In this document: piece by piece, positions 7,787 through 57,671 of the stretch
Layout of the letters: the number at the start of each line of letters is the position of its first letter
Numbering within the stretch: position 1 is the first letter of the stretch
Source: a virus
Taxonomy: Duplodnaviria > Heunggongvirae > Uroviricota > Caudoviricetes
Reading direction: 5' to 3' (one strand)
Length of the DNA stretch: 64,000 nt
IMG/VR virus record: IMGVR_UViG_3300028805_000076
Location: 8,165-72,164 of that record
Program-made: the position numbers and the translations under genes
The notes under the pieces: model-generated
Told to the model about the DNA's origin: nothing
The model's input: the letters and a program-made list of their open reading frames with translations, nothing else
Databases searched by the model: none

Positions 7787-7805
7787 ATCTTTGTTGATGT
7801 ATATA

Positions 7806-14556: not shown

Positions 14557-14595
14557 AACCCACGAAAAAATAGGTAAAGTTATGAAGAAAGTATG

Positions 14596-14685: not shown

Positions 14686-14687
14686 AA

Positions 14688-21074: not shown

Positions 21075-21147
21075 TTGTCCCTCCAAGACTCGAACTCGGA
21101 CTTTCAGACTCAAATTCTGACGTGCTAACCATCTACACCAAGGGACA
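21075..21147 (-). tRNA. tRNA-Gln(UUG)
   Basis: acceptor TGTCCCT/AGGGACA, anticodon stem TCAGA/TCTGA, loop ATTTGAG, T arm CCGAG-TTCGAGT-CTTGG. Confidence 0.7.
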
Positions 21148-40931: not shown

Positions 40932-41057
40932 ATCTTAAAAATTGTAAATATATCGATATTATATAAAAAAAATATTAGAATAAAAAAAAATTACTATTAT
41001 ATTATATTTTAATTTAGTTCTAAAATACCTTATATTTATTATTATAAATATAAAATT

Positions 41058-44000: not shown

Positions 44001-47000
44001 AAGATAGAAGATTACAATACACCAATTGAAGGCTTGGGAATGACTGTTACAGAACTTGGCAAGTATACTGGTGGACAAGGCGCAGTTCCTTTGTGTTATA
44101 CACAATCTCAAGGTACATATAACAGTTATACTGAAAACAATCAATTTAATATGTATGCTGTGTTGCGTGATGGATGGCAGAATGAACCTTGTGAGATTGA
44201 AGAAGATTATCCATTGGATAGCTACGGTTTATCAATGATATTTGTAATTATTGATGAAAATGGAAAGATTGAATACAGTAATGTTAGATGGAATCACGGA
44301 CCAAGAAATTACAAAAGAAGTGTTGACAACATATTCTCGTACAATGAATTGAGGGATATTGTTGGAAGTAATGTAATTAAGCAAGTTGGGGCAAATGTAG
44401 AAATAGACACATCGTTACAATTGACATATGAGGTAGAGAAAAAGTTGAAACAAGACTTATCTATTTACCAAATATTTGGTAATGTTGGCTTTTTTAATGA
44501 CGGTTTGGCAAAGGTTTTCTATTCTGGTTTATACAATTACATAGATTCATCTGGAGACTTACTAACTGATGAATGGTTTGACTTTTGTTCTCCATTTCAA
44601 AATGGGCTTGCTGTGGTACGAAAAGGACATAAGGCAAATTATATAAAGACAGACGGTACTTATTTATACAACACAGATAATACTGATGATTGGTTTACTA
44701 TGGCAAGTTATTTTGATGAAAATGGTTCTGCTATCGTTGGAAAGAATCATAAATACAATTTTATTCTAAAAGATGGTACATTCATTTGGAAAGGTGAATG
44801 GTTTGATTGGGTTGGTGATTTTATTAATGATATTGCTCTAGTTAAAAAAGATAACAAAGCTAATTTTTTAAGATTTGATGGTACATTAGTTTGGAATTAT
44901 GAAAATACAAATGATTGGTTTAATGATGCTACTAATTTTAGTGCGGATTATCATGTCTCATTGGTTCAAAAAAATGGTAAATTTAATTATTTGAAGACTG
45001 ATGGTACATTTGTTTGGAATTATCTTGACACAAAGAAATGGTTTGATGGTTCTTATCATTTTTTTGATGGTATAGCTCAAGTTAAAGTCAACTATAAACA
45101 TGAAGAAAAATGGAACTACCTCAAACTAGATGGAACTTTTTTATGGAAGAAGCCACTAAAACAGTGGTTTGATAATGCTTATAGGTTTGATGAAGGTGTT
45201 GGTATAATAGAATATAAAGGCAAAAAAAATTGGTTAACAGCCAAAGGTGAAATATTTTGTCAAGATATGTGGTTTGATGGGGTTGGAACATTTCACGAAG
45301 GGATTACTAAAGTAGAAATAAACGGTAAATTTAACTTTTTAAATAGTAATGCTAAGTTATTGTGGGGGTCTTACGATGACACAACAGATTGGTTTGATTA
45401 CGTTGATAGGATTGAGCAAGGGTATGCTAAAGTAAGAAAACAAGGACGTTGGAACATATTACGACCAGATGGTAAATTATTGTGGGATTATTCAAATCCT
45501 CAAGATTGGTTTAATAATATTGGACCACTTGATAAAGAAGAAATAATATCTGTTTCAAAAGATGGTAAAAGTAATTATTTAAATCTTCAAGGTAAACTTC
45601 TAAACCAAAATTGGTTTGATAGTTGTTTTGTATTTGAGAATGGAGTTGGTAAAGTTCAAAAAGACCAACACATGAATCTAATCAGAAAAGATGGCACATT
45701 TGTATGGAACAGACCATTGAAAGATTGGTTTATTTTCATTGGCGAAGTAGACGATTTTGGTTGTGCAGAGGTATACACACATTATCAAGGTGCAACTGTT
45801 GGTAACGTATTGAAAATAGAAGATGGTACGTTACTGTGGAAGAAAAGTCCAAAATTCTGGTTTCGTTACATTGACGTTAATGAGATATTACCAAATGGTG
45901 TAAAAGGTTATAGAGTCTCAAAGGCAATAAAGACTATGATGAAATATAACTTCTTAAAGTTAGATGGTACTCTTCTTTTCAAAACATTTTTATCTGTTCA
46001 CAGCTATAAGTTGGCAATGAATGCTTTAAGTAATAATGATAATCAAATAATACAAGAATCTTTACGAGAATATGTTAAAGATAAGTCGTTGTTGGCTGAA
46101 GCCGATTCACGAATTAAGGGAACTAGAAACACAATTAAAAGGGGTATTGCTGCAATAACCAAACTTGACATTAATGACCCTATTGTAGAAAACTTGACAA
46201 ATGATGTTTGGAATACTTATGTTGTTCATCCTATCGCAAATGAAAATCGTCAGCTTGACGAATATATTGCCATTAGGAATAATGCTGACAGACTTCTTAT
46301 GTACGCTGTAAAACAGAACCAAGATGGTACATATTACATAACAAAAAATCCACGTTTGAAAAATGGCTTTGAGAATCTTATTCAAGCACAAAGGAAAGAT
46401 AATACAAAACAAATACTTGATAATAATGCAAATTTGTTCCAATGGTATAACACACAGAAATACAATCAAGCATTGGAAAACTTACAAGCCAATAGTAAAA
46501 AAATACAAGAAGGCAAATATAGTTACAAAGCATATCCAATCACTGATTTTTATGATAACATTAAAGGCTTGGGAATGACTGTTGAAGACCTTGGGGAGTG
46601 GACTGGTAGTGAAGAAGCTGTCGAATTGTGCTATACTCAATCTGAAGATACGTATAACCAATATACACACGGCAACAAATACAATATGTATGCTTTATTG
46701 CGCCAAGGTTGGCAAGACGAGCCTTGTGAGAAAGGAGAAGGTTATCCTTATGACAGCTACGGTCTTTCTATGATATTCGTAATTATCGATTATAATGGTG
46801 ATATAGCTACAAGTAATGTTAGATGGAATCACGGTGACAATTCTTATTCTAATGTAGATAATATGTTCACCTATTCTAAATTAGTACAAATTGTTGGTTC
46901 TAACATACTTAATAAAATACATTGTACATATAATGATGACATAACTCGTAATATGTCACTTATAGTAAGACTTGAAAAAGCTTTAAGCAATATTGATGCA

Positions 47001-48194
47001 ACTGATGTTGATTCATTTTGCGATGCTTTCGATAACATTTCACGCCAATATGAAGATTTGGAAAATGTTGAGCTATTTACTCTTGGAAGTGATAGGCTAA
47101 TAACCGTAGAATATGAAGAAACATATGCAAATATATATGATATAAAAGAGAAGCATTTTATTTCCGATGAATGGTTTTCTAGTATTTCGAATTATTCATG
47201 CGGCTATAGTACAGTACAATTCTTAAATGATGGAACATGGAATTTTATTGATGAAGAAGGCAATTTTTTAAATGACAAGCGTTATGACCACTGTTATGAT
47301 TTTGACAACGGATACGCTGTTGTTAAAAATAATCAAGAAATGTATGAAGTAATAAATATAAAAGGTGAATCATTATTTACCACAGATAGACGAGTCAGGT
47401 TTATTGGAGAAGAACGTGTAGCTTATGAAGACATTAATTATTCTTTATTATTGGATATGCGCGGTAAAAAAGTAGTTGACACATATTTTGATTATATTGG
47501 TTATTTTTACTGCGAAGGATATATTACAGTAAGTGTTGATAATAGAGTTAATTTTATAGACGCAAATGGAAAATATTTATCAGACGTTTGGTATCTTGAT
47601 GTTGAAAGACCATTTTCAAACGGCTGTGCTATAGTTAAATATGATAATGGTATGATAAATATGATTAATAAAAAATGTCAAAAGCTACTTAAAGAAGATG
47701 CTATAAGATGGAAAACAATGTATGATTATGTATATGAGAATGTATTGTACTATATATTTGATTTAGGCAGTCGTATTAAAGAATTTGTAAAAACAAACGG
47801 TCAAATTATATGTGATGCTCTAACTTTTAGTGATTCAAATAAACTTAGGAGGTTAAAAATACAATTTTTAGATTATAGTTGGAACTATTTAAAAGATGAT
47901 GGTACAATGTTATTACCATATAATTGTTATGAAATTTCAAATTTCTATGAGCATGATTATATTCAAGATATAAAGTTTGCAATTATCAAAAAAGAACCAA
48001 GTAAAGAATGTATTATTGATGTAAACGGAAATGAAATGACAGAAGAATATATATCAATGTATCCTTTAACAAGAACTGAAAACTATGTTGCTTTAGGTGT
48101 AAAAGGTCCAGATGATGGTTACAAAATTGATTATCAGTTTAACGCAATACCAATAAGTAAGGATGAATTTGTTAAGATGATAATGGATAATTAA
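41058..48194 (+). CDS. giant protein (2378 aa) of three tandem ~820-aa modules: unknown N-terminal Cys/His domain + KWG-like beta-propeller repeats
   Basis: module N-termini LTEDQKRTIRNKI...NQNIERL..YV.KQ at ~aa 1, ~820 and ~1660; conserved block YHYSVYK..GLGMTV.ELG.YTG...CYTQS..YN.YT..N.YNMYA.LR.GWQ.EPC...YP.DSYGLS..FVI.D.NG....NVRWNHG; then dozens of (K)YNFI..DGT..W..P...WFD....F..G.A.V repeats. Confidence 0.6.
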   Translation: MEITNSIVKNCLTEYVQDRFQLLTEDQKRTIRNKITRGVSSRVPHRVDDTKMIEKLVDDIWNTYVLHPLHDGVHHRQNDEITIINQNIERLIPYVIKQKSDNESENVTYYITTNPRIRNSWENLIQSQRQNRNVTLWGNDGGDLTYWDVNKRYNDAVNSAKNTKIEGKYHYSVYKVENYDTPIEGLGMTVSELGQYTGGKGSLKCVPLCYTQSLNTYNNYTKGNEYNMYALLRDGWQNEPCKMTEGYPLDSYGLSILFVIVDPNGNIAYNNVRWNHGPKGYPRSVDNIFTYKELAEIVGSDVMEQINTTADVDQSLRFTYEVETKLKEGQDINDIFMSKGTERCGYIPVCYMHKWNFLDSSKSLLCDEWFDGVGSFHPNGFSYVYKSNLYNFIDFNGELVWDRPLEEWFNHIDSWSFDVYGLCRVMKDYHYNWLKTDGTLLFNNQQQEWLDRASDFHNQIAYIKLHGKYNYIRTDGSLVWDYDDTQYWFDDVADKGFNNSNVAMVTIDRLVNLLKTDGTLVWNKPPELWFNHIVANDSNKDIYQVERSNKYNFLRMDGTLVWQKPFNEWFTSIGAFYNGLAKVTTSFGETYNFIKMDGTLLFDETDDTKHFDKIGNFASGPAFVCINNKYNFIREDGTYIWDKPIGQWFDSVSEYFREGFACVRKKGVANFISTEGKLLWKKPLKDWFSGVDPFYQGIAQVRKNGKNNYIRTNGKLVLNKPFDEWFFWMGKVINSPNIFIVRDAMRYNYIKDGELLYNQPHTKWFTDISRMLDKINDNISGFLVQKGYRHNFLKLDGTLLNSSFVSKSELESIIRRIKHQSSNIQESLREYVTKNLQLLTEDQKKTIRNKIARGIVSMTNLDVNSTEVQSLVDNVWNIYVVHPIEGEKRQNDEITVINQNIERLVPYVLKQNDSENYFISSNPRIRKSWENLIQTQRQNRQTNIWQDNDNLLYWNTNKKYNDAINAATSEEIKGKYHYSVYKIEDYNTPIEGLGMTVTELGKYTGGQGAVPLCYTQSQGTYNSYTENNQFNMYAVLRDGWQNEPCEIEEDYPLDSYGLSMIFVIIDENGKIEYSNVRWNHGPRNYKRSVDNIFSYNELRDIVGSNVIKQVGANVEIDTSLQLTYEVEKKLKQDLSIYQIFGNVGFFNDGLAKVFYSGLYNYIDSSGDLLTDEWFDFCSPFQNGLAVVRKGHKANYIKTDGTYLYNTDNTDDWFTMASYFDENGSAIVGKNHKYNFILKDGTFIWKGEWFDWVGDFINDIALVKKDNKANFLRFDGTLVWNYENTNDWFNDATNFSADYHVSLVQKNGKFNYLKTDGTFVWNYLDTKKWFDGSYHFFDGIAQVKVNYKHEEKWNYLKLDGTFLWKKPLKQWFDNAYRFDEGVGIIEYKGKKNWLTAKGEIFCQDMWFDGVGTFHEGITKVEINGKFNFLNSNAKLLWGSYDDTTDWFDYVDRIEQGYAKVRKQGRWNILRPDGKLLWDYSNPQDWFNNIGPLDKEEIISVSKDGKSNYLNLQGKLLNQNWFDSCFVFENGVGKVQKDQHMNLIRKDGTFVWNRPLKDWFIFIGEVDDFGCAEVYTHYQGATVGNVLKIEDGTLLWKKSPKFWFRYIDVNEILPNGVKGYRVSKAIKTMMKYNFLKLDGTLLFKTFLSVHSYKLAMNALSNNDNQIIQESLREYVKDKSLLAEADSRIKGTRNTIKRGIAAITKLDINDPIVENLTNDVWNTYVVHPIANENRQLDEYIAIRNNADRLLMYAVKQNQDGTYYITKNPRLKNGFENLIQAQRKDNTKQILDNNANLFQWYNTQKYNQALENLQANSKKIQEGKYSYKAYPITDFYDNIKGLGMTVEDLGEWTGSEEAVELCYTQSEDTYNQYTHGNKYNMYALLRQGWQDEPCEKGEGYPYDSYGLSMIFVIIDYNGDIATSNVRWNHGDNSYSNVDNMFTYSKLVQIVGSNILNKIHCTYNDDITRNMSLIVRLEKALSNIDATDVDSFCDAFDNISRQYEDLENVELFTLGSDRLITVEYEETYANIYDIKEKHFISDEWFSSISNYSCGYSTVQFLNDGTWNFIDEEGNFLNDKRYDHCYDFDNGYAVVKNNQEMYEVINIKGESLFTTDRRVRFIGEERVAYEDINYSLLLDMRGKKVVDTYFDYIGYFYCEGYITVSVDNRVNFIDANGKYLSDVWYLDVERPFSNGCAIVKYDNGMINMINKKCQKLLKEDAIRWKTMYDYVYENVLYYIFDLGSRIKEFVKTNGQIICDALTFSDSNKLRRLKIQFLDYSWNYLKDDGTMLLPYNCYEISNFYEHDYIQDIKFAIIKKEPSKECIIDVNGNEMTEEYISMYPLTRTENYVALGVKGPDDGYKIDYQFNAIPISKDEFVKMIMDN

Positions 48195-48249
48195 AAAGTG
48201 AACTATATACTTGTTGACACCGAAAAATTATTTATGCAAAATTTAAAAA

Positions 48250-48297
48250 ATTGGCACCAGTTAGGTAAAAAAATCTGACTGATGCCATTTTTTTGTA
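48250..48297 (+). terminator. intrinsic terminator, paralog of 3858-3905
   Basis: ggcaccagt...actgatgcc + T7. Confidence 0.5.
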
Positions 48298-48329
48298 TAT
48301 TCTAAAATATTTATAGATAAATAATGGAG

Positions 48330-48371
48330 ATAGAGTAAAATCTGATTTTGCTCAGACTATTTTTTTTTTAA
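48330..48371 (+). terminator. hairpin + T10
   Basis: gagtaaaa-tctga-ttttgctc then tttttttttt; a related element at 59670-59711. Confidence 0.45.
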
Positions 48372-48392
48372 TTGAATTAAAATCATTATATT

Positions 48393-49124
48393 ATGTTATA
48401 TCTAAAATTATTTCAAACGGAACAAGAAAGACAAGCGTGTACAGAGACACAAGAATATGTGTCTTATACAAAAGAAAGTGATAAGGTGAATATACACCCA
48501 AAAGCATTATTCTGTAAATTAACACTTAACAATGGTGAAGTGGTTGAAATTGAAGGTAGTGGAGAATTAACATATGCTATGACAATACCATATACAGCAA
48601 CAACAGTCAGTGTTGAAATTGGTGACATATGTACAAGTATTAGTTATAGTGTTTTCTATGGTTGTAGTGGATTAACAAGTGTAACAATAGGAAATAGTGT
48701 TACAAGTATTGGTTATGCTGCTTTCCGTAATTGTAGTGGTTTAACAAGTTTAGATTTAGGCAATGGTGTTACAAGTATTGGTAGGGAGGCTTTCTATGGT
48801 TGTAAATCATTAACAAGTATAACGATACCAGATAGTGTTACAAGTATTGGTGAGGGTGCTTTCGAAGATTGTAATCCATTAACAAGTGTAACAATAGGAA
48901 ATAGTGTTACAAGTATTGGTGCTACTGCTTTCTATAATTGTAATAATTTAACTAGTATTACCTCATTAGCAACAACAGCACCATCAATTTCAAATAATAC
49001 ATTCCGATATGTAAAAACAAGTGGTACATTATATGTTCCACAAGGTAGTAGTGGATATGATACTTGGATGCAGAATGCAGACTATTATTTAGGAAAATAT
49101 AATTGGACTAAGGTAGAGCAATAA
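48393..49124 (+). CDS. BspA-type leucine-rich-repeat protein (copy 1)
   Basis: repeated NSVTSIG.xAF.xC..LTS.TI units. Confidence 0.55.
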   Translation: MLYLKLFQTEQERQACTETQEYVSYTKESDKVNIHPKALFCKLTLNNGEVVEIEGSGELTYAMTIPYTATTVSVEIGDICTSISYSVFYGCSGLTSVTIGNSVTSIGYAAFRNCSGLTSLDLGNGVTSIGREAFYGCKSLTSITIPDSVTSIGEGAFEDCNPLTSVTIGNSVTSIGATAFYNCNNLTSITSLATTAPSISNNTFRYVKTSGTLYVPQGSSGYDTWMQNADYYLGKYNWTKVEQ

Positions 49125-49227
49125 TATTTTTTTTATTCAGCAAATGATATAGACCCAGAAGACAATGATACTCCACTTTAATTAATGATATGCAATTTTG
49201 CACTAGTTAAGTAAATTAAAAGCAATA

Positions 49228-49273
49228 AAAGCCAAATACAAGCAATATACTGCAAGTATTTGGCTTTATTTGT
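49228..49273 (+). terminator. intrinsic terminator (gccaaatac...gtatttggc + TTTATTTG)
   Basis: 9-bp stem; identical element at 60555-60600. Confidence 0.55.
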
Positions 49274-49375
49274 ATAATTATTCAAATTTTCAATTCAATG
49301 TCTACAAATATATAATTCAAAGAAAATTTGGCATCAGTTGGTAATTAATTTACCAAACTGGTGCCAAATTGTATA

Positions 49376-49645
49376 TCATTGCCTATTTTTTAATTGCATT
49401 CTGTTCATTACATAAACAGCCTCTTCTTCACAGTCGAATTCCAAGCTTTGCTCGAACCATAATGAGGTATATCCAAAAAAGTAGTTGCAAGCGATAACAT
49501 ATCGAGTTTTGCCATTTCTTTGCTTTTTGATTATTTTATACCTTTTAGCAAAACTTGCATATTCACCGTTTGTCTGTATAGCGTGATAGTGCAAATATAA
49601 TGCAATAAAAGGTGATAAAAGAAGCATCCCTAAAATAAATCCCAT
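49376..49645 (-). CDS. small membrane protein
   Basis: N-terminal hydrophobic helix. Confidence 0.4.
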   Translation of the reverse strand: MGFILGMLLLSPFIALYLHYHAIQTNGEYASFAKRYKIIKKQRNGKTRYVIACNYFFGYTSLWFEQSLEFDCEEEAVYVMNRMQLKNRQ

Positions 49646-49709
49646 AGTAGTAATTTTTTTTTACGATGCAAATATAGCAATATTAATTGATATTAGCAAT
49701 TTTTTTTAG

Positions 49710-51230
49710 TTAAAAATCGTTAATAGTGCTTTCCATCATTTCTATATCCACCTCACCTTTATCTATACGCTTGCTTTCCAACAAGAAGAAAGCCTCTGTT
49801 TTAAGCTTGAACGCTTCTTTTATTTCATCGCCAACGATTCTCAATACAAAGCCTTCACGAGGTACTTTATTATGACAGAGAGGTTCATTCTTTTCCATAA
49901 AGAATCTTTTTTCCTTACCAAGAAGTTCAAGTACATTTTCATTCCAATGATTTTTGGTATCAACTTCTGGATAAAAATCAGCCAACTTGCCACGGAAAAG
50001 CACGTCAAGTACGAAAAGCCTGTCAGCAATTTCTGGGCGTTCATTCATTAGATTCTTTGTCCAATTTATCACTTCATCAACTTCCCATTCTTTTTTAGAG
50101 CCATCTTCGTTAGTTGTTGTTATTCTATATGGCATAAATTTGTTATGACCAACTTCACATCCATAATCGTAATTTCCAGTAGCAAACATTTTTTGCAAGC
50201 CAGTTTCATAACCAAAAATTTCGCCATAAACGGTCATACCTTCTTGTATAGCCCCTTTCAATATCTCGTTATATTCAGCCCATACGTCTGTTTTATAATA
50301 ACATTCTGTGCTATTTTCGTTGATATATTGGTTTCTAATTTGGTGTCTAGATGAATATATGGTATCATATACATATTCTATCTTTTGGAATTTGATAGGC
50401 AATGAATGGCAAACCTTATTCACTATGTTGGTTAGCCAACCAAATGGTGTACTATATTGCTTTGGTCTTTTTGTTAGAACATTTGCAAATATGGCAGAAG
50501 TGCCATGTATTTTAGTAGTAATAATTACTTCAGTATCTGGTTTAATCAAATTAAAATTCTTCTTAAGTGGCTGTGTGTCATAATGAAAGAAGAATTGACC
50601 TGGAATCATTCGGTCATATCGTTTGATTTTATTTTGGCTCCACGTATATTCTCGTACAATTCTTTTTTTCGGTGGTATATATGGAACATATGCTTTGATA
50701 AACAATTCACCATTGACAGTATCAAAGTCGTAACCGATATAATCCTTCAAATTGATATTAACTATTTCTGGGCAAAACTTTTCCATTGTTTCTATACTAA
50801 ACAAGAAACCGCTAGAAGCAACACCTCTAAGTCTAATCATTTTTACTCTTCGGTGTTTGGTAAAAAAACCAGTGTTTTCTTTAATCAACGATTCCAATCT
50901 TGAAACTTCTTCCAAATCTTGATTTGTTTTTGCCAATTGAAGCTGTGTAAGGAGTTTACCTACTTGAACAGCATTTGCGTTCTTGTCGAATTCGCTTTGT
51001 TCAAACAGATTATTTACTGACAAGAACCGTTCATTCAATTGTGTTTCATTTTCAGCATAGAACATCAAATCACCTTGCTTTACCAAATCTCGTCTGACTA
51101 CAATTGTTTGCCCGTTTACTTTTGTTGATGCAAGAAAATCAGAATTTGGTATAGGTTCAATCTCGCCAACCTCAATGATTGACGCACAGTATTCGTGGTT
51201 TATATGTTCTGATTGTTCTAGTATTTTCAT
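49710..51230 (-). CDS. RNA ligase, Rnl2-like nucleotidyltransferase with a ~200-aa N-terminal extension
   Basis: motif I TKIHGTS (T4 Rnl2 is KIHGTN), motif IV EGFVLR, motif V FKLK. Confidence 0.55.
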   Translation of the reverse strand: MKILEQSEHINHEYCASIIEVGEIEPIPNSDFLASTKVNGQTIVVRRDLVKQGDLMFYAENETQLNERFLSVNNLFEQSEFDKNANAVQVGKLLTQLQLAKTNQDLEEVSRLESLIKENTGFFTKHRRVKMIRLRGVASSGFLFSIETMEKFCPEIVNINLKDYIGYDFDTVNGELFIKAYVPYIPPKKRIVREYTWSQNKIKRYDRMIPGQFFFHYDTQPLKKNFNLIKPDTEVIITTKIHGTSAIFANVLTKRPKQYSTPFGWLTNIVNKVCHSLPIKFQKIEYVYDTIYSSRHQIRNQYINENSTECYYKTDVWAEYNEILKGAIQEGMTVYGEIFGYETGLQKMFATGNYDYGCEVGHNKFMPYRITTTNEDGSKKEWEVDEVINWTKNLMNERPEIADRLFVLDVLFRGKLADFYPEVDTKNHWNENVLELLGKEKRFFMEKNEPLCHNKVPREGFVLRIVGDEIKEAFKLKTEAFFLLESKRIDKGEVDIEMMESTINDF

Positions 51231-51236
51231 AGTAAG

Positions 51237-51905
51237 CTATTCTAATTTTTGGCATTCTTCTTCAGAGTACAAAGAATGCAGTTTATTAATCCACCAAGCG
51301 GTTTTGACTTTAACTGATGGTCGTTGTTGACCTTTCATTAATGTTGAACGTTTGAAAACAACACCTTCCTTGATATTAAGTGGGTTGCCAATATCGGTTA
51401 TTTTTTGTATTTGTGAAATTATGTCATAATCTAAAGACCCAACATATACAAGTTGAGCCACTTCAATTCCACAATCAGAAAACAATTTCCAAAAAATATT
51501 TGGTTCTATATATCCTTTCTTTTTCAAGAAAACATCAATTAGAGCCAAATGCATATCATCACCTTCGACATGTTTACCAGCAAAAGATTGCTCACCATAC
51601 CATTCAAAAAAGAATGTTATTTCGTCAATGCCGTTAAACACACCTTTTTTCTTTGAATTTTCAGCAATAATATTTTCAAGTATTTCTCCGTATTTAGATG
51701 CTTTGAAAAATTTTACTGCGTCTCCAAGCTGTTCGCTGTTTTCATCTACTGTAACTGTTCTTGAGCCATAATTAGCCCATTGCTTCTTTTTACAATTATA
51801 TGCCGCACAAAAATTTTGCCCGTCCAACTTATTAAAACCCCAAACAGTTTCACCTTTCAGTGTACCATCGTCTTGTATTCTAGGAATACTGTTATAATGT
51901 TTCAT
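51237..51905 (-). CDS. second covalent nucleotidyltransferase (RNA/DNA ligase-like adenylyltransferase domain)
   Basis: motif I NKLDGQN (KxDG), EGVVFK, VKVK. Confidence 0.45.
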   Translation of the reverse strand: MKHYNSIPRIQDDGTLKGETVWGFNKLDGQNFCAAYNCKKKQWANYGSRTVTVDENSEQLGDAVKFFKASKYGEILENIIAENSKKKGVFNGIDEITFFFEWYGEQSFAGKHVEGDDMHLALIDVFLKKKGYIEPNIFWKLFSDCGIEVAQLVYVGSLDYDIISQIQKITDIGNPLNIKEGVVFKRSTLMKGQQRPSVKVKTAWWINKLHSLYSEEECQKLE

Positions 51906-51916
51906 ATGAATTAACC

Positions 51917-52186
51917 TTAAGTAGCGTGTTTAAAGAATTTACGGATTACTATCCAATACGTGCACACTAAAGTGAATACAGAAATCCCATGCTCAACATA
52001 AATGAATTTAATGTCTTCGTTAGAAAAATCCTTGCAAATCAAATTACGGATTATTACTAAAGCAAAGCACACAATATACATTACAAATAAAAATATTTGT
52101 TGCCAAGGTTTAATACTCATATTTATTATTATTTTGTTCTTATTATTCGTCACTGCCAATATATTTGCATAAACAAATAAAGGCAA
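51917..52186 (-). CDS. small membrane protein
   Basis: two hydrophobic segments. Confidence 0.4.
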   Translation of the reverse strand: MPLFVYANILAVTNNKNKIIINMSIKPWQQIFLFVMYIVCFALVIIRNLICKDFSNEDIKFIYVEHGISVFTLVCTYWIVIRKFFKHAT

Positions 52187-52376
52187 TTATTAAAATTACA
52201 GTCCACATACTATTTCTATTTTAAGGCCACGTCCATGATTTAACATATCAATGAACTCTTGAATGGAAATTTCCTTTATTTCTGTATATGATTCACTATG
52301 ATTTCGTTTGCAAGACAAACAGCATCTGTCACATTCTATTATTGTACCGAAAGGCATACAATCATAATAAGTAATT

Positions 52377-52640
52377 TTAACTGTCTTTTGTATTGAAAAT
52401 TACAGCTCTATCAATCAATAGTGTGGAATCGTCAGTAGAAAAGACTTGTTTACCATTAAAGAAATGTTCACATCCAAGTTCGCTGATGGATATTATTTTC
52501 CTTTGGGCAGAAATTCCATAATCAGAATTAGATAGATTATTTTCTAGCATTTTCGCAGCATTATCAAACGAATTGGATACAACATAAAATGTACCCAATC
52601 CATTTGTTGTTATTCTATACAATTTAATATCACTCATCAT
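52377..52640 (-). CDS. hypothetical protein
   Basis: 87-aa ORF. Confidence 0.4.
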   Translation of the reverse strand: MMSDIKLYRITTNGLGTFYVVSNSFDNAAKMLENNLSNSDYGISAQRKIISISELGCEHFFNGKQVFSTDDSTLLIDRAVIFNTKDS

Positions 52641-53146
52641 TTAAAATTCTTCCAGTTTTCAAAACTCATCATAATAAAATAATATTTATCGAATGGCTTT
52701 ATTTGAAACCATACGCGATTATTACTATTATTGCCTTGGATAAAATATGCCCCATATATCTTATTATTAACATCTATAACAGAATCTTCATTAATTTTAT
52801 CACATCCGCAACATTGATAATTTGGATGAAAAGTAAAATAATCAACAAGAAAATTGAAATTTTCCTTAATGGTTTCAGCGTTATAACTATCGTGGTCAGT
52901 CACCCACAACTTGTAAACCTTTCCGCTTATAGTGTCAATATATACGTTTACATTATGATATAAGTAATTACCAAAAAAGTATTCACGATTATTAATATGT
53001 TTTGGAACAAAACCTTTTTGGCATAGCTGTTCCTTGACAGTTTCATAAGAGCCATCAATTTGGATACCATTGAATGTGGTTATATTTTGGCTAAATGAAA
53101 CTATAGTACAGAATAAAAATGTTAATAATAAGAATATGTGTTTCAT
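52637..53146 (-). CDS. secreted hypothetical protein
   Basis: signal peptide MKHIFLLLTFLFCTIVSFSQ. Confidence 0.45.
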   Translation of the reverse strand: MKHIFLLLTFLFCTIVSFSQNITTFNGIQIDGSYETVKEQLCQKGFVPKHINNREYFFGNYLYHNVNVYIDTISGKVYKLWVTDHDSYNAETIKENFNFLVDYFTFHPNYQCCGCDKINEDSVIDVNNKIYGAYFIQGNNSNNRVWFQIKPFDKYYFIMMSFENWKNFK

Positions 53147-53159
53147 TTAAATTACCGAT

Positions 53160-53513
53160 TTATGCATTAACTGGATAATCTTCTCTCCAATACTTTGTAG
53201 ATTCAGATGTTTCTTCAACTTCTTTGTCTGAATTCATATATTCAACAAATTTACCTTCATCGAAACCAAAACTAAAATTACTGAAAAATTTACCAAAATA
53301 CAAAAGAGCTTTTTTAATTGTCGCAGTTTTGCCTTGCTTGACACCTTTGTTAAGGACATCCGTCAATGTATCTCCAGTTGGATTATCTACGCATTCTTGT
53401 GCGGCAGAAATATATGCATCAATGGCGGCATCATATGCCGCTTGATTATATTTGTATTTAGTGGCAAAAGCTTTTGCCTTTTCGGTAATAACGTCTCGCA
53501 TATTTTTTTTCAA
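53160..53513 (-). CDS. hypothetical protein
   Basis: 117-aa ORF. Confidence 0.45.
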   Translation of the reverse strand: MKKNMRDVITEKAKAFATKYKYNQAAYDAAIDAYISAAQECVDNPTGDTLTDVLNKGVKQGKTATIKKALLYFGKFFSNFSFGFDEGKFVEYMNSDKEVEETSESTKYWREDYPVNA

Positions 53514-53519
53514 ATATTG

Positions 53520-53888
53520 TTAGAAATTTTGACGTGGAGCAAGGTCAATCTCGTCAAGCAATTTACGAATGTTAACACCATTTCTAGCCGCATCCTCAAG
53601 AATTTCCTTAACCTTTGCGGTCTGTTCTTCATCAAGTTCACTCTTACGAGCTTCAACGAGTCTTAGCAAGTGGTCTTCAAACTTTTCAACAGCTTCCTTA
53701 GTATCCATTGTATTAAGAACACTCTCAATTGCATTTAGGCAAATGTCGTTTACATTGACACGTTTGCCAAAATCAGCAGCCTTGTCCTTGAACTGTTCAC
53801 TCACTTCTGTTGCAGTCTTTGCTGCGGATGAAATAAGCTCTTGCATACGAGCATTCAATTCATCAAAATTAATCTTAAAATTTTTCAT
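53520..53888 (-). CDS. hypothetical protein (helical, acidic)
   Basis: 122-aa ORF. Confidence 0.45.
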   Translation of the reverse strand: MKNFKINFDELNARMQELISSAAKTATEVSEQFKDKAADFGKRVNVNDICLNAIESVLNTMDTKEAVEKFEDHLLRLVEARKSELDEEQTAKVKEILEDAARNGVNIRKLLDEIDLAPRQNF

Positions 53889-53939
53889 AATTTAACTTAT
53901 TGTTTAAAAAAGTGAATAATTTGTTGTATACATAGTATC

Positions 53940-54383
53940 TTAATTTAAATACATAACACCATCTTGAGGTGAAATATAACAATCAAAAACATAATTTGAG
54001 TATTTAACCCTCCACGTATCAGATGTTACCCAAAGGTTTTTTTGAGCAAATTCATCAATTTGTGAAATAAAGTCAGAATAGCTTAAATTACTTCTTAAAA
54101 TTTTAGCTAATGAAACGAATGTTTCTGTATTAAATGTTGTAGCATAATAAGGTTGATATAAAGTATGAATTGTATGCTTGCCATAAATATTTATTCCAAT
54201 TTTATCATTTAAACATGAAATGTCAAAATGATATGTATCAAATGCCCTTCCTATAAAAACTTTTTGACCATCAATAAAATATTTAGCTGATATTTTTTCT
54301 GCAAGTTTATTTAAAAATTCCAATTGTGTCATATAATTGTATGATTTGTACTGTGAGTATATAGTAAAAAAAATAAAAAACAA
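53940..54383 (-). CDS. hypothetical protein
   Basis: 147-aa ORF. Confidence 0.45.
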   Translation of the reverse strand: MFFIFFTIYSQYKSYNYMTQLEFLNKLAEKISAKYFIDGQKVFIGRAFDTYHFDISCLNDKIGINIYGKHTIHTLYQPYYATTFNTETFVSLAKILRSNLSYSDFISQIDEFAQKNLWVTSDTWRVKYSNYVFDCYISPQDGVMYLN

Positions 54384-54469
54384 AAAAAATTGTAAAAAAA
54401 AATCATCTTGAATTTTTTTTGATTACACATATATTTATATATATAATATTTTTTAATTCAAATAAAACA

Positions 54470-54856
54470 ATGAATACAAGAAGGTTAATAAGAGAGTCAA
54501 GAAGATTTAGAAAAATGCTAGGTGAAGCATATGGTGATGATATGCCTCAAATGAGAGGTGGTCAAGGCCAAATGCCTAATGATGGCGCAATGCCTAACCA
54601 AGGTGGTCAAATGCAGCAGTCTATGAATGATGAATATATGGAGACAAATGAGGGTGAAGCAAATGCGCCTTATGAGGAAGAAACTGAACACAACAATGTA
54701 ATTGACCAAATCAGACAATTGGCTATCAAGGGTATTGCTCAATATGCAGATGATATTGAATCAGAGCAATATCAATCGTTAAAGAAGATTTGGCTTTTGA
54801 CAGATAAGTTCTATGAAGGACTTGAAAACGAAGAAGGAAATAATGTTAAAAAATAA
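54470..54856 (+). CDS. Q/G/M-rich hypothetical protein
   Basis: start set at MNTRRLIRE; the track ORF began in an AT-rich spacer. Confidence 0.4.
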   Translation: MNTRRLIRESRRFRKMLGEAYGDDMPQMRGGQGQMPNDGAMPNQGGQMQQSMNDEYMETNEGEANAPYEEETEHNNVIDQIRQLAIKGIAQYADDIESEQYQSLKKIWLLTDKFYEGLENEEGNNVKK

Positions 54857-54865
54857 GTAAATACA

Positions 54866-55321
54866 ATGGCAAAAAAGATAAGATTAACAGAAAACGAATT
54901 GCGTAATGTTGTTGCAGAATCAGTAAAAAGAGTACTTAAGGAAATGCAGTATGGAACAGCTGGTTATGCATCTGGTAGAGCAGCTAGGCAAGCAGCAAAT
55001 CCTAGTTTTGGGCAAAAAATAAATGATAGACTAGGAGGCATGTTCGGTAAAACTTCACAAGAATATGCAGACCAATCGGCAAGAATAAGAAGAATGGGAC
55101 AAGAGAAAGCTGATAATGCTGATAAGGCGTATTATGATAAGCAATGCCAATTAGACCCAGCTTTCGCTGAACAATACCCTACATTTAACGATTATAAATA
55201 TAGAGGTTATTCAAATACAAAACAATTTAAAGATGAATATAACAGTGGTAGAAATGGTAATCCATATTATAAACGAGGAAAAGGGTTTACAAGTGATATT
55301 CCAAAGTTCGGTAATTCATAA
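54866..55321 (+). CDS. IRLTEN-domain protein (third paralog)
   Basis: MAKKIRLTENELRNVVAESVKRVLKE. Confidence 0.5.
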   Translation: MAKKIRLTENELRNVVAESVKRVLKEMQYGTAGYASGRAARQAANPSFGQKINDRLGGMFGKTSQEYADQSARIRRMGQEKADNADKAYYDKQCQLDPAFAEQYPTFNDYKYRGYSNTKQFKDEYNSGRNGNPYYKRGKGFTSDIPKFGNS

Positions 55322-55352
55322 AAATTAATTATAGATAAAATAGTTTATTTGT

Positions 55353-55952
55353 ATGTCTTTACTTTTAAAAATACCAGAAAAATTTCAACCTATTAGATAT
55401 ATAGAAGAAGTTATATCACAATTTATCACAGAAGCTGTTGATAAAGTAATAGATGATGATAGATATAATCATTGTGGATTTGAAATGCTTATTGGTATTC
55501 CAGGTTGCGGTAAATCAACATATATAAAAAAAATACAGATAGATAATGCTGATATTGTTGTTATAAGTCCAGATAATATTCGTAGAGAATTAACTAGCAA
55601 TGTATCAGACCAATCACAAAATGTAAATGTTTGGAATATTGCGTTAGAAAAAATAATTCAGAACATTTCTAATGGCAAATATGTAATATTAGATGCAACA
55701 AATGTTAGCACTTATTATCGAACACAATTGCTTAATAACATAAAAAATGCTGTCGGTAATAACGTTAAAACATATGCAACTGTATTTTATAGTGACCCAG
55801 ATATATCCAAAAAAAGAATATCAACAGATATTGCAAATGGTATAGATAGAGCCAATGTTCCATATGAAATCATTGATAAGATGTATGAAGATTATTTGGA
55901 AACATTGCAAACTATTAAAACAGAAGGTTTTGATAAAATATTTTGGCAATGA
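55353..55952 (+). CDS. P-loop polynucleotide-kinase-like protein
   Basis: GIPGCGKST Walker A and ILDATN; small ~200-aa kinase fold near the RNA ligases. Confidence 0.45.
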   Translation: MSLLLKIPEKFQPIRYIEEVISQFITEAVDKVIDDDRYNHCGFEMLIGIPGCGKSTYIKKIQIDNADIVVISPDNIRRELTSNVSDQSQNVNVWNIALEKIIQNISNGKYVILDATNVSTYYRTQLLNNIKNAVGNNVKTYATVFYSDPDISKKRISTDIANGIDRANVPYEIIDKMYEDYLETLQTIKTEGFDKIFWQ

Positions 55953-55975
55953 TATATATTTATTATTATAATTAA

Positions 55976-56013
55976 CAAAAAAAGACCAAGATTTATGTCT
56001 TGGTCTTTTTTTG
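55976..56013. terminator. bidirectional terminator (gaccaagat...tcttggtc)
   Basis: A7 upstream, T7 downstream. Confidence 0.55.
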
Positions 56014-56244
56014 TTTCTTTATCAATTCTTTTTCTTGATAATCAAATTTCTCAATCTTGTATTCTGTTTTTCTTTTTGTGCTTTTAGTAATTGATTTTGA
56101 TTTGTCACAGCATTGTTTCAGAACTACCTCCAATTCTTCGGCAGTGTCAGTTATTGGTGTAAAGGTCTCTTGGAACCACTTTGTCCAAGTGATTCCAGAG
56201 TTAGAGAAATATTCATATCTGCTTATAATCCTATATTTTTCCAT
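55993..56244 (-). CDS. hypothetical protein
   Basis: 83-aa ORF. Confidence 0.4.
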   Translation of the reverse strand: MEKYRIISRYEYFSNSGITWTKWFQETFTPITDTAEELEVVLKQCCDKSKSITKSTKRKTEYKIEKFDYQEKELIKKQKKTKT

Positions 56245-56510: not shown

Positions 56511-57671
56511 ATGAAAAAGGAAGAATTAATTGAAATAAAGAAAGATAAAACTGGTACTGGTTTGCTTATAGAGCACGATGGATATATCAAACCAAACAGT
56601 CAACTAATCAAGGAAAGTATGGATGGTGAATGGCATTGTCCATTTCCATTCGTAGTTGATGCCGTATTTCAAAAGGCTGACGTAAAAAATGCGAATGGTC
56701 GTATTTATCCAAGAAAAATACTTGAAAGGGAAATTGAAAACTATCAGCAAAAAATACGTGAACATAGAGCACTAGGGGAATGCTATACACCAGATGTATT
56801 AGTCTTATGTGTAGATGGTTGGAAATGTATTTCTAGTATCACAGAAAATGATTCTGTATTAACTTTAAACACCTCTACCAACGAAATTGAAATCCAAAAA
56901 GTATCCAAAAAAATTGAATATGATTATGATGGTGAAATGATTAGGTTAGAAAGCAGTAACATATCTGATTTAGTTACACCAAATCATGGGTATCCAATAT
57001 ATAATGATAAAGATATTTTTGAAAATTTTTACACTGCTGAAGACATATTTAATGGTAATATAAATAATATTGAAAAATGTTATATTCCTAAATTTGTACC
57101 ATCTTTTGCTAATTGTGTTTCATTAAACAAAAATAAATTAATAGTTACAAAAGAAAATTATTGTGGGAAAGTAATGTGTATAGAAGTACCAAATCATACT
57201 TTTTACGTTATGTCAAATGGTAAATGCCATTGGAGTAAAAACTGCAATCACCCTAGTGATTCCACTATAGACCTTGGAAGAATCAGCCATAATATCATTG
57301 AATTGCATTGGGAAGGAAATACAGTAGTAGGTAAGCTTGAATTGAATATCAGTGAAGGTTTTAGAAGAAGCGGTATTTGCTCAACTCTTGGTGATACTGT
57401 TGCTAATCTTCTATTGAATGGCTATAAGATTGGTGTATCTTCTAGAGCAGTAGGAAGCGTAGAACAGAAACTTGGTGTACTAGTGGTTGGAGATGACCTA
57501 GAACTTATTTGTTGGGATGTGGTTAGCGACCCTAGTACAAATAATGCTTGGATAAGTATGAATGGTAAAGAAGAAATGCAAACTTGGATTGAAAATAAAG
57601 AAAATGTTGGAAATTCAAAAAATATTATTTCTGAAAAAATTACCAAAATAAAAAATATTTTAAATGGTTAG
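56511..57671 (+). CDS. protein with a mini-intein; extein resembles a T4 gp21-like prohead protease (low confidence)
   Basis: Hint blocks: CYTPDVLVL..DGWKCISSI (A), LVTPNHGYPIY (B), VMCIEVPNHTFYVMSNG (F), SKN|C (G). Confidence 0.5.
   Translation: MKKEELIEIKKDKTGTGLLIEHDGYIKPNSQLIKESMDGEWHCPFPFVVDAVFQKADVKNANGRIYPRKILEREIENYQQKIREHRALGECYTPDVLVLCVDGWKCISSITENDSVLTLNTSTNEIEIQKVSKKIEYDYDGEMIRLESSNISDLVTPNHGYPIYNDKDIFENFYTAEDIFNGNINNIEKCYIPKFVPSFANCVSLNKNKLIVTKENYCGKVMCIEVPNHTFYVMSNGKCHWSKNCNHPSDSTIDLGRISHNIIELHWEGNTVVGKLELNISEGFRRSGICSTLGDTVANLLLNGYKIGVSSRAVGSVEQKLGVLVVGDDLELICWDVVSDPSTNNAWISMNGKEEMQTWIENKENVGNSKNIISEKITKIKNILNG
56781..57242 (+). other. mini-intein (Hint domain, 154 aa, no endonuclease domain)
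   Basis: Cys1 at aa 91, terminal Asn at aa 244, +1 Cys. Confidence 0.5.

Follow-up and report, generated by a model that had tools for sequence, protein, structure and literature searches.

Phage RNA repair is a recognised form of counter-defence, and the question raised by this locus is whether two adjoining genes for ligase-like proteins and a nearby kinase gene, in the genome of a giant phage from the gut, remotely related to the Lak megaphages, represent such a system. A first-pass annotation of the window (the whole 64,000-nucleotide stretch of DNA analysed here) had suggested as much, and the three ORFs it described are present, each containing every motif that had been quoted from its translation. 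The reading we favour, to which we attach a probability of roughly 0.6, is that these genes belong to a dispersed 'heal-and-seal' RNA repair set extending over ~16 kb (40182-55952) of a Prevotella-type megaphage. The set looks like a further instance of the kit with which phages commonly mend RNA that host defences have cut, and adds a well-resolved case from gut Bacteroidota, the megaphages of which are poorly annotated. The relevant features are as follows.

40182-40931, minus strand: 249-aa calcineurin-like binuclear metallophosphoesterase (MPE) ORF, PF00149
49376-49645, minus strand: 89-aa ORF with a hydrophobic N-terminus, directly downstream of the Rnl5 gene
49710-51230, minus strand: 506-aa Rnl5-type ligase ORF, OB module plus nucleotidyltransferase domain
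51237-51239, minus strand: TAG stop of the 222-aa gene, in frame with the Rnl5 ATG
51237-51905, minus strand: 222-aa nucleotidyltransferase ORF, a stand-alone Rnl2/REL1-like domain
55353-55952, plus strand: 199-aa polynucleotide 5'-OH kinase ORF of the bacterial Pnkp clade
55974-56015, no strand: perfect 19-bp hairpin with A and T runs on its flanks

Against this reading, the four genes do not form a single operon in the window; the kinase gene lies on the opposite strand to the ligases and 3.4 kb from them, and the MPE gene is 8.8 kb from the ligases, on the far side of a 7-kb gene. The fold and family of each protein, the conservation of catalytic residues and the recurring linkage of the genes are established here; the reactions catalysed, the RNA acted on, the sequence of the steps and a part in counter-defence are inferred.

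Two ligases of distinct lineages

The 506-aa protein is a predicted nick-sealing RNA ligase of the Rnl5 (DraRnl/NgrRnl) type. It comprises an N-terminal OB module (residues ~1-180), a disordered linker (~186-197) and a nucleotidyltransferase domain (~230-480), with no C-terminal domain, the motif V lysine being residue 477 and the chain ending at residue 506. The same arrangement, of an OB module and then a nucleotidyltransferase domain with nothing past motif V, is found in NgrRnl (PDB 5cot, 6vt*) and in DraRnl, the ligase of Deinococcus radiodurans, the motif I of which, TEKLHG (PMC1807946), shares the pattern T-x-K-x-H-G with the phage protein. This motif pattern and the other properties of DraRnl and the Rnl5 family have been described previously (PMC1807946, PMC5397189). 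The 506-aa protein had first been taken for an Rnl2-type ligase carrying a non-standard N-terminal domain of ~200 aa. Instead, that region is the OB module by which the Rnl5 family is defined, as it matches Pfam PF21189 (PHA02142 OB-fold; residues 16-66, E 5.6e-8), can be aligned to the N-terminus of NgrRnl both by phmmer and by the family profile, and retains the RLRG segment conserved in the N domain of Rnl5 enzymes. Similarly, when the AF2 model (pLDDT 83.7) was searched with Foldseek, the top 13 matches were all to NgrRnl over the full length (E 8e-14, TM(target) 0.68); the whole chain superposes, although sequence identity is ~15%. The protein is also longer than is typical of the family, at 506 aa against ~340, because its OB module contains an additional helical hairpin of ~40 aa (at ~67-120) and its nucleotidyltransferase domain has inserts as well. 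Unlike DraRnl and NgrRnl, it is a phage enzyme, the gene for which is linked to one encoding a metallophosphoesterase.

The catalytic domain matches PF09414 RNA_ligase (residues 234-475, 36.6 bits, E 6.6e-9), and PHROG 968 'RNA ligase' matches the protein along its full length (E 9e-44). By contrast, the score against NCBIfam TIGR02306 RNA_lig_DRB0094 (37 bits, E 1.7e-9) is far under the cut-off of 151.15, which indicates a divergent member of the family rather than an equivalog. The translation contains KIHGTS, EGFVLR and FKLK motifs, and across 34 homologues K240-I-H-G, S293/R295, E337, Y412/G414, E459-G460 and K475/K477 are invariant or nearly so, with K240, H242, G243, S293, R295, E337, E459, G460, K475 and K477 all invariant in the family. 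K240 is the predicted AMP-accepting lysine.

The adjacent 222-aa protein is, on the evidence of its sequence, a stand-alone Rnl2/REL1-like nucleotidyltransferase domain without a nucleic-acid-binding domain. It contains motifs I (K26-L-D-G), Ia, III (E101), IIIa (D124), IV (E180-G) and V (K199, K201), with NKLDGQN, EGVVFK and VKVK in the translation, and K26, D28, G29, E101, D124, E180, G181, K199 and K201 are invariant in its family. Like the larger ligase, it exceeds the PF09414 gathering score of 27 bits (residues 20-201, 35.2 bits, E 1.7e-8). In fold, the AF2 model (pLDDT 95, pTM 0.91) agrees with T4 Rnl2 and REL1, all six nucleotidyltransferase motifs of which are present, the best Foldseek matches being TbREL1 (1xdn, 5.7e-10) and T4 Rnl2 (2hvr and 1s68, 1e-8 to 3e-9), and TbREL1 is likewise matched when the family profile is compared with the PDB (2.7e-4). 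The protein differs from both in having KLDG, not KIHG, as motif I and in identity, which is 12-14%. It also lacks any OB or other C-terminal domain, including the helical C-terminal domain on which T4 Rnl2 depends both in step 2 of the reaction and in binding nicked duplexes (PMC3884662). As the chain ends 21 residues past motif V, matches PHROG 548 over profile positions 3-239 of 341 only, and has homologues of 200-230 aa, the resemblance to Rnl2 is confined to the catalytic domain.

These homologues constitute a large, uncharacterised family of stand-alone phage proteins of ~200-225 aa, widespread in huge phages; 468 representative clusters were found at 50% identity, nearly all of 200-230 aa, for which the source annotations gave no useful family name. 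Within the compared stretch of 49300-56000, the 222-aa gene is the sole instance of DNA-level conservation with Lak phages. One tentative suggestion, which we consider doubtful, is that the family is an uncharacterised clade of minimal polynucleotide ligases, consisting of bare adenylyltransferase domains of ~200-225 aa. Were this so, the substrate-binding domain may be supplied in trans, only pre-adenylylated ends may be sealed, or the target of adenylylation may be something other than a nick. Split arrangements of this kind have precedents, as an OB-fold partner supplies binding in trans to trypanosome REL1, and T5-like phages have a DNA ligase of two subunits. A search for a conserved immediate neighbour that might be such a partner turned up the healing enzymes, Rnl5 and, in three loci, a ClpP-like protease, and nothing else. 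A domain-less ligase-like family conserved to this degree could define the minimal requirements of strand sealing.

Both proteins are thus placed by profile and fold searches in the ATP-dependent RNA ligase superfamily, as the covalent lysine nucleotidyltransferases they were originally supposed to be. RNA ligases come far ahead of DNA ligases in the two fold searches, and the possibility that either protein is a DNA-ligase fragment was therefore rejected. In the Foldseek results for both, Rnl1 structures rank below those of Rnl5 and Rnl2 and align over the catalytic core only. Nor are the two ligases recent paralogues; the profile-profile alignment between them covers motifs IV-V only, at a probability of 5%, implying distinct lineages.

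The junction between the ligase genes

A feature absent from the first-pass annotation is that the two ligase ORFs share a frame and are separated by a TAG and two codons (...KLE TAG L T MKILEQ...), such that reading the TAG as glutamine, as in genetic code 15, would generate a two-headed ligase of 731 aa, whether always or late in infection through a suppressor tRNA. Lak phages reassign TAG to glutamine (10.1101/356790), an in-frame TAG in the Lak-A1 Rnl5 gene aligns with Gln198 of the window protein, and for five of the window's 12 ORFs that end in TAG, a second stop, TAA or TGA, follows within three codons. Such a fusion nevertheless appears very improbable. The 222-aa protein of all 11 relatives compared terminates after the equivalent ...LE, and the stop codon there is TAA in eight and TGA in one, with TAG in two; in one of them, locus L008, the Rnl5 gene adjoins the 222-aa gene across a TAA. 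Since other stop codons, TAA or TGA, close the gene at this point in relatives, the ORFs represent two genes, consistent with Rnl5 homologues beginning at positions equivalent to residues 1-3 of the window protein. Other signs of recoding are missing from the window, in which dropping TAG as a stop brings no unusual gain in coding length, the ligase pair are the only real genes that would merge, no tRNA with a CTA anticodon was found and in-frame adjacency across a TAA is common. Furthermore, the kinship of this phage with Lak is distant, Lak being absent from the matches listed for its tail-tube protein. Read-through was accordingly rejected as the main reading of the junction.

A kinase of the bacterial Pnkp clade

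The 199-aa protein is a stand-alone polynucleotide 5'-kinase of the bacterial Pnkp clade, with predicted activity on 5'-OH ends. Following an N-terminal extension of ~40 aa, it has a P-loop at residues 48-55, the general-base motif D74-x-x-R77 and, further along as in the Pnkp kinase fold, D114 and R123, with GIPGCGKST and ILDATN present in the translation; the P-loop residues G48..K54 S55, along with D74, R77, D114 and R123, are invariant in its family. It surpasses the gathering score of Pfam PF13671 AAA_33 (56.1 bits, E 6.6e-15), meaning that the motif matches in all three ORFs of the first-pass annotation are beyond chance, and it matches PHROG 505 'polynucleotide kinase' as well as the kinase region, and that region only, of NCBIfam bacter_Pnkp (positions 12-153 of 851, E 6.4e-11). 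When compared with the PDB, the family profile matches the full kinase domain of Clostridium thermocellum Pnkp (CthPnkp; 4gp7, 154 positions, 3.8e-23), followed by Pnkp1 (3e-15), PSTK (7e-14) and T4 Pnk (1e-7). Matches to phrog_761 (1e-3) and adk (0.006) are marginal against this, and a thymidylate or nucleotide kinase was rejected in favour of the polynucleotide-kinase-like identity first suggested. Homologues in Bacillus phages are annotated as polynucleotide kinases and adjoin genes annotated as RNA or tRNA ligases. The Lak genomes, by contrast, yielded no homologue of this kinase, a point against the heal-and-seal reading.

A metallophosphoesterase and its linkage to the ligases

The MPE encoded at 40182-40931, which had gone unremarked in the first-pass annotation, is a candidate 2',3'-cyclic phosphodiesterase and 3'-phosphatase for the healing of 3' ends. 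It matches Pfam PF00149 (E 2.1e-8), and it shows the metal-binding motifs of the lambda-phosphatase/Pnkp type (DxH, GDxxD, GNH(D/E), H and GH) as D8-x-H10, G32-D33-x-x-D36, G71-N72-H73-D74, H124 and H207, none of which varies among six homologues. Activity on RNA ends is proposed from linkage of the gene to the ligases, and the enzyme is a candidate for that role in keeping with the 2',3'-cyclic phosphodiesterase activity of two other metallophosphoesterases, the CthPnkp phosphatase domain and lambda phosphatase (PMC2190708). However, its similarity to characterised enzymes is weak and generic, the best sequence matches being PP1 and ApaH (E 0.03-0.06), such that its substrates could instead be nucleotides or proteins. 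This leads to a different view of the locus, in which the genes do not cooperate, the MPE acting on signalling nucleotides or proteins and the kinase on some other substrate, with their linkage reflecting the clustering of accessory genes in a variable region. The annotation of Lak phosphodiesterases as cyclic-nucleotide enzymes by Devoto et al. would fit such a scenario, as would the finding that six of 11 related loci have no partner gene within 8 kb of the 222-aa gene.

Comparison of related phages makes this absence of cooperation quite improbable. Homologues of Rnl5 and the MPE are 1.9-3.1 kb apart in all 15 Lak genomes, which represent the A, B and C groups, whereas the chance of a given gene lying within 8 kb of another in a genome of ~450 kb is ~4%, as a rough estimate rather than a formal test. 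Rnl5-MPE is therefore a conserved gene pair across Lak-type phages, and one that offers a testable RNA-end-healing context for Rnl5, the physiological role of which is, to our knowledge, still described as largely uncharted. Against the heal-and-seal reading, the 222-aa gene is ~40 kb from Rnl5 in Lak genomes; elsewhere it is accompanied by different partners. In loci L007 and L012, the MPE, the 222-aa ligase, a T4-type Pnk kinase and Rnl5 are encoded on one strand within 8-10 kb; L008 has an HD-kinase fusion with the 222-aa ligase and Rnl5, L006 an HD-kinase fusion with the 222-aa ligase, and L010 the MPE with the 222-aa ligase. The distance from the MPE to the 222-aa gene in L007, L010 and L012 is 0.9-3.1 kb from end to start, or 1.3-3.3 kb by the ends of tblastn matches, and in MT835470 an Rnl5 homologue is 2.4 kb from a T4-type Pnk. 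Overall, three unrelated types of kinase, in independent lineages, and two types of phosphoesterase occur beside the same ligases. Such swapping of unrelated healing enzymes is what selection on end healing as a function would be expected to produce, and thus provides comparative evidence for a pathway, arguing for heal-and-seal RNA repair. The window kinase, the profile of which matches no nucleotide kinase well, also fits poorly with a set of unconnected activities. In recurring together in related megaphages, the genes behave as the first-pass annotation, for which a lack of any co-occurrence would have been decisive, had anticipated.

Proposed pathway

In the heal-and-seal reading, the MPE would open and then take off the 3' phosphate at a break, the Pnkp-type kinase would add a phosphate to the 5'-OH, and a ligase adenylylated on its motif I lysine (K240 of the Rnl5 enzyme, K26 of the 222-aa enzyme) would pass AMP to the 5'-phosphate and seal the break. 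In line with the Mn-dependent sealing of 3'-OH/5'-PO4 duplex nicks, with RNA as the 3'-OH strand, that characterises its family, the Rnl5 enzyme would act on nicks held in a duplex, as in stems that have been broken or in RNA:DNA hybrids where the 3'-OH belongs to RNA, its N-terminal OB module serving both nick recognition and adenylylation. By analogy with the isolated domain of T4 Rnl2, the 222-aa enzyme probably self-adenylylates and seals pre-adenylylated ends, with full sealing probably requiring a partner in trans.

A rival proposal is that the set serves replication or repair of the phage DNA, with Rnl5 sealing nicks that have a ribonucleotide 3'-OH, such as primer remnants or misincorporated rNMPs, and with DNA ends being cleaned by the kinase and the phosphoesterase. 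In favour of this proposal, the Shuman-lab literature describes HD-Pnk enzymes and kinases of the bacterial Pnkp type as healing the ends of both DNA and RNA, and the fold assignments fit it equally well. The nicks sealed by DraRnl have RNA on the 3'-OH side and either DNA or RNA as the 5'-phosphate strand, and deletion of the enzyme renders Deinococcus sensitive to ionising radiation and slower to reassemble its genome. Recovery from DNA damage is thus the one function in the cell demonstrated for any Rnl5 enzyme (PMC5397189), which counts against the heal-and-seal reading. A function in DNA metabolism nonetheless seems unlikely, as within the window there is no link between these genes and those for replication proteins, and a review of jumbo phages finds the same combination of enzymes with phage tRNAs and other RNA repair genes and interprets it as directed against host RNases (PMC7824862).

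Relation to known repair systems

The set has features in common with bacterial Pnkp. The window kinase is in the same clade as those of C. thermocellum Pnkp and of Pnkp1 from Pnkp-Rnl-Hen1, the MPE is in the calcineurin/lambda-phosphatase superfamily, as is the Pnkp phosphatase domain, and both systems include a ligase. The kinase, though, is a separate chain unfused to metallophosphoesterase or ligase domains, and the three activities, combined in one polypeptide in bacterial Pnkp, are here distributed between separate polypeptides over 16 kb, with ligases that are Rnl5-type and Rnl2-like in place of the Rnl4-type ligase domain. No methyltransferase, Hen1 included, was detected among the ~50 larger window ORFs scanned; RlaP, RtcB, 2H and Tpt1 were likewise absent from the ORFs scanned.

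The set also resembles T4 Pnkp with Rnl1, in that a phage kinase and phosphatase heal the ends and an ATP-dependent phage ligase seals them, as is proposed here, and the relatives L007 and L012 use a T4-type kinase. However, the kinase in the window is not fused to a HAD phosphatase, and the window lacks an Rnl1-type ligase bearing a tRNA-specific C-terminal domain. T4 Rnl1 repairs breaks in the anticodon loop, for which the Rnl1 type is specialised. The ligase types found in the window, Rnl5 and Rnl2, favour nicks in duplexes over such breaks (PMC3884662), an observation that counts against the heal-and-seal reading. An RNA ligase serving the repair of tRNA had already been ascribed to Lak genomes (bioRxiv 10.1101/356790). 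In the window, the connection with phage-encoded tRNAs drawn by the first-pass annotation was rejected, as the one tRNA to pass Rfam, a tRNA-Gln at 21075-21147, is ~28 kb away and neither ligase is of the Rnl1 type.

The pairing of two ligases, initially considered unusual, is not so. T4 encodes both Rnl1 and Rnl2 (PMC3884662), and the 2021 survey by Iyer et al. reports up to three Rnl paralogues in jumbo phages (PMC7824862). The survey describes sets similar to the one in the window, in which several non-redundant Rnl paralogues occur with polynucleotide kinases and phosphoesterases, the latter being of calcineurin-like or HD type in a few phages; it divides the ATP-dependent ligases of phages into Rnl1, Rnl2 and rare divergent groups, and took in Lak-B8 and XacN1 (PMC7824862), the latter of which has a homologue of the 222-aa protein. 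Multi-ligase repair sets are consequently already described in jumbo phages and current understanding is not overturned, while neither the Rnl5 and MPE pair nor the domain-less family of ~220-aa ligases is singled out in the passages of the survey consulted (PMC7824862).

Flanking features

The 89-aa ORF at 49376-49645, which has no family match in Pfam or PHROG, is probably co-transcribed with the Rnl5 gene. At the other end of the locus, the hairpin at 55974-56015 lies between the kinase gene and the convergent gene that follows it, and looks like a bidirectional terminator.

Two adjacent RNA ligase-like genes

The three ORFs that the first-pass annotation had grouped as an RNA repair module are all present in the ORF calls, with every motif quoted for them found in the translations, and a phosphoesterase gene can be added as a putative fourth component.

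Genes of the putative repair system in the window
40182-40931 (-): calcineurin-like metallophosphoesterase, 249 aa, all metal ligands conserved
49710-51230 (-): predicted Rnl5-type RNA ligase, 506 aa
51237-51905 (-): putative bare adenylyltransferase domain, 222 aa
55353-55952 (+): predicted polynucleotide kinase, 199 aa

The window has a G+C content of 33%, and its sole matches at the DNA level are the Lak megaphages of Prevotella; within the stretch compared (49300-56000) only the 222-aa gene matches Lak DNA, at 66-70% identity. Kinship with Lak is distant: Lak is not among the listed matches of the window's tail-tube protein. The locus recurs in near-identical form at the end of an IMG/VR contig of 387 kb.

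Both adjacent proteins score above the Pfam gathering threshold for PF09414 (RNA_ligase). The longer, which matches phrog_968 (RNA ligase) over its full length in PHROGs (E 9e-44), is predicted from sequence and modelled fold to be an Rnl5-type ligase. Its N-terminal 'extension' matches PF21189, the OB-fold domain of PHA02142-type ligases, and its nearest NCBIfam model is TIGR02306, the family of Deinococcus DRB0094 (DraRnl), albeit with a score far under the equivalog cut-off. The N-terminus of Naegleria NgrRnl was found in the PDB both by the single sequence and by a 34-sequence profile, and the 13 best PDB matches of the AlphaFold2 model (mean pLDDT 83.7) are all NgrRnl, aligned over the whole chain (E about 1e-13, TM 0.68 by target); REL1, T4 Rnl2 and Rnl1 rank far lower, with the catalytic core alone aligned. 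The original assignment to the Rnl2 type is thus superseded, and the supposedly non-standard architecture therefore turns out to define a known clade. In motif I (TTKIHGTS) the protein shows the K-x-H-G pattern of DraRnl (TEKLHG; PMC1807946), and 29 residues separate the motif V lysine from the chain end. Three features make the protein longer than the ~340-aa Rnl5 prototypes: the OB module carries a helical hairpin (about residues 67-120), there is a disordered linker, and the catalytic domain has inserts. The Rnl5 clade was already known in phages (PMC1807946, PMC5397189), and its members are annotated as 'RNA ligase' in hundreds of actinophage records.

The 222-aa protein, a match to phrog_548 (RNA ligase), gives a very confident structure model (pLDDT 95), with the Rnl2-family catalytic domains of trypanosome REL1 and T4 Rnl2 as its best matches. 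These similarities uphold its earlier description as a second covalent nucleotidyltransferase; having neither a C-terminal domain nor an OB module, it is predicted to be a bare adenylyltransferase domain. When separated from the rest of T4 Rnl2, the catalytic domain self-adenylylates and seals a pre-adenylylated nick, while neither binding nor sealing a normal one (PMC3884662). The catalytic residues are all invariant in a 53-sequence alignment with identity down to ~30%, and an exhaustive search delineated 468 representative clusters, nearly all of 200-230 aa. Close homologues are mostly on contigs of tens to hundreds of kb; the only deposited phage genomes encoding the protein are Lak, three huge uncultured phages and the Xanthomonas jumbo phage XacN1. 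Comparison of the two window ligases led to the rejection of recent paralogy between them.

A TAG codon between the ligase genes

The 222-aa ORF ends in TAG, with the Rnl5 ATG in the same frame two codons downstream, such that read-through would fuse the two proteins. In parts of their genomes, Lak phages translate TAG as glutamine (10.1101/356790), and in Lak-A1 the Rnl5 gene is itself split by an in-frame TAG (5017-5019 of the extracted locus; about 443016 of MK250016.1); in the alignment this codon falls precisely on the window protein's Gln198. Fusion is nevertheless unlikely, though possible: the 222-aa protein ends at the same ...LE residue in 11/11 relatives, nine of which use TAA or TGA, and in L008, a related megaphage locus, the two genes are adjacent with TAA between them. 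Freeing TAG gains no more coding length in the window than expected and merges no other pair of real genes, and in-frame adjacency across TAA is also common there. From these sequence comparisons we conclude that the ORFs represent two genes. The Lak-A1 codon is an independent illustration of TAG = Gln in Lak and shows that the Rnl5 gene there is translated with TAG recoded.

In five of the 12 TAG-terminated window ORFs (examples being 2941-3834, 24043-24528, 31574-32419, 508-1071 and 6403-6753), a second stop, TAA or TGA, follows within one to three codons, against about 15% expected from composition (roughly P 0.03, uncorrected). Such stops could guard against read-through, given that relatives recode TAG, or could reflect chance.

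Candidate end-healing enzymes

The kinase belongs to the AAA_33 P-loop family in Pfam and matches phrog_505 (polynucleotide kinase). A 25-sequence profile aligned over its full length with the kinase domain of Clostridium thermocellum Pnkp (E 3.8e-23), followed by Pnkp1 of a Pnkp-Rnl-Hen1 system, seryl-tRNA(Sec) kinase, T4 Pnk and mammalian PNKP, with nucleotide kinases essentially absent from the matches. The P-loop, an Asp-x-x-Arg motif and downstream Asp and Arg residues are invariant in the family, and phage homologues are annotated as polynucleotide kinases; in Bacillus Tsamsa-like phages these adjoin genes annotated as RNA or tRNA ligase. Taken together, this bears out the initial reading and therefore argues against a nucleotide or thymidylate kinase.

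The phosphoesterase is a natural candidate for 3'-end healing by analogy, because the phosphatase domain of bacterial Pnkp and lambda phosphatase, of the same superfamily, have 2',3'-cyclic phosphodiesterase activity (PMC2190708). Since it resembles characterised enzymes only weakly in sequence, the assignment rests on gene linkage: a homologue lies 1.9-3.1 kb from that of Rnl5 in every Lak genome of groups A, B and C. In the window the two genes are 8.8 kb apart, separated on the opposite strand by a BspA-type LRR protein (48393-49124) and a 2378-aa WG-repeat protein (41058-48194, +). Three large modules resembling one another make up the latter; an ...LLTEDQK.TIRNKI... region opens each of them, and numerous beta repeats containing WG (PF14903, E 5e-28) come after it.

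Associations in related megaphages

ORFs around the 222-aa gene were clustered in 11 related megaphage loci.

Loci with partner genes
L007, L012: phosphoesterase, 222-aa gene, T4-type polynucleotide kinase and Rnl5, on one strand within 8-10 kb
L008: HD-kinase fusion (1889-3220), 222-aa gene, Rnl5
L006: HD-kinase fusion (1938-3266), 222-aa gene
L010: phosphoesterase, 222-aa gene

The fusions (442-443 aa; Pfam HD and AAA_33), about 5 kb upstream of the 222-aa gene, join an N-terminal HD phosphohydrolase to a C-terminal P-loop kinase, which is the architecture of bacterial HD-Pnk end-healing enzymes. MT835470, a human gut phage record, has a T4-type kinase and an Rnl5 homologue 2.4 kb apart. One relative encodes a kinase 58% identical to that of the window and, 9.5 kb away, a third kind of ~220-aa PF09414 protein (L018 20070-20552; L019 15419-15901) with the motifs ...GENLYGEH..., EGVVMR and CKYVR, and with no similarity to either window ligase by tblastn.

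The genes thus do recur together in related megaphages, with at least one partner in five of the 11 loci; the other six have no partner within 8 kb of the 222-aa gene. In Lak, ~40 kb separate the 222-aa gene from Rnl5, and the window kinase has no detected homologue. The linkage is loose, yet the same ligases are repeatedly accompanied by kinases of three unrelated types and phosphoesterases of two types, a pattern difficult to account for unless the healing of ends and their sealing work in concert.

Three loci also have a ClpP-like protease subunit (PF00574; E 2e-71 in L007) between the healing enzyme and the 222-aa gene (L007 7090-7749; L012 7040-7699; L008 5334-5924), for which the window has no counterpart in that position.

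Proposed function and relation to earlier work

At an RNA break, the phosphoesterase would restore the 3'-OH, the kinase would add the 5'-phosphate and a ligase, acting through lysyl-AMP, would seal the ends. The suggestion of a kit against anticodon-nuclease damage is retained as general RNA repair; the claim of anticodon-loop repair is weaker, because both ligase types favour duplex-held nicks (PMC3884662) and no Rnl1-type, tRNA-specialised ligase is present. Nor does the proposed link to phage tRNAs add anything, since the only confirmed tRNA in the window is ~28 kb away. The system may instead serve DNA nicks that contain ribonucleotides, a role suggested for DraRnl (PMC5397189).

The gene set is of an already described kind: Devoto et al. 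pointed out that Lak genomes encode an RNA ligase and suggested a role in tRNA repair (10.1101/356790), and Iyer et al. (PMC7824862), analysing jumbo phages with Lak-B8 included, described multiple non-redundant RNA ligase paralogues, three of them in XacN1, working with polynucleotide kinases and with phosphoesterases, the latter being calcineurin-like or HD-type in a few phages. What is added here is modest: the 506-aa ligase is placed explicitly in Rnl5, its pairing with the phosphoesterase is shown to be conserved, relatives are seen to exchange one healing enzyme for another, and the ~220-aa ligase-like proteins without appended domains are delineated as a large family.

Other features of the window

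Two adjacent 91-92-nt tRNA-like genes (14595-14779 and 14873-15325, both -), one with a four-base 'anticodon', were called by ARAGORN, both under the Rfam tRNA threshold, and adjoin an HNH/NUMOD4 homing-endonuclease-like ORF; tRNAs with unusual introns are reported from Lak phages. A 328-aa protein (57692-58678, +) with repeated ~50-aa treble-clef/DUF723 zinc-ribbon units is possibly related to homing endonucleases, and a homologue lies directly upstream of the 222-aa ligase gene in the related locus L003 (about 6431-7795).

A nicotinate phosphoribosyltransferase is present at full length (34409-35644, -; E 1e-35 to 1e-44 for the NAPRTase N and catalytic domains); NAD-salvage genes of this type have been proposed as a counter to host defences that deplete NAD. 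In XacN1, too, the gene homologous to that of the 222-aa protein is near an NAD synthetase gene (locus L024). The ORF at 10887-11450 (-), a clear match to the formate/nitrite transporter family (PF01226, E 7e-16), is an auxiliary gene unusual for a phage. Finally, a 386-aa protein (56511-57671, +; ...GECYTPDVLVLCVDGW ... HWSKNCNHP) matches the T4-type prohead core protease in its C-terminal part only (Peptidase_S77, E 1.4e-18), and weak matches to intein/Hint models at residues ~97-237 (Intein_splicing E 3.3e-4, below cut-off) suggest that this head-maturation protease may contain an intein.
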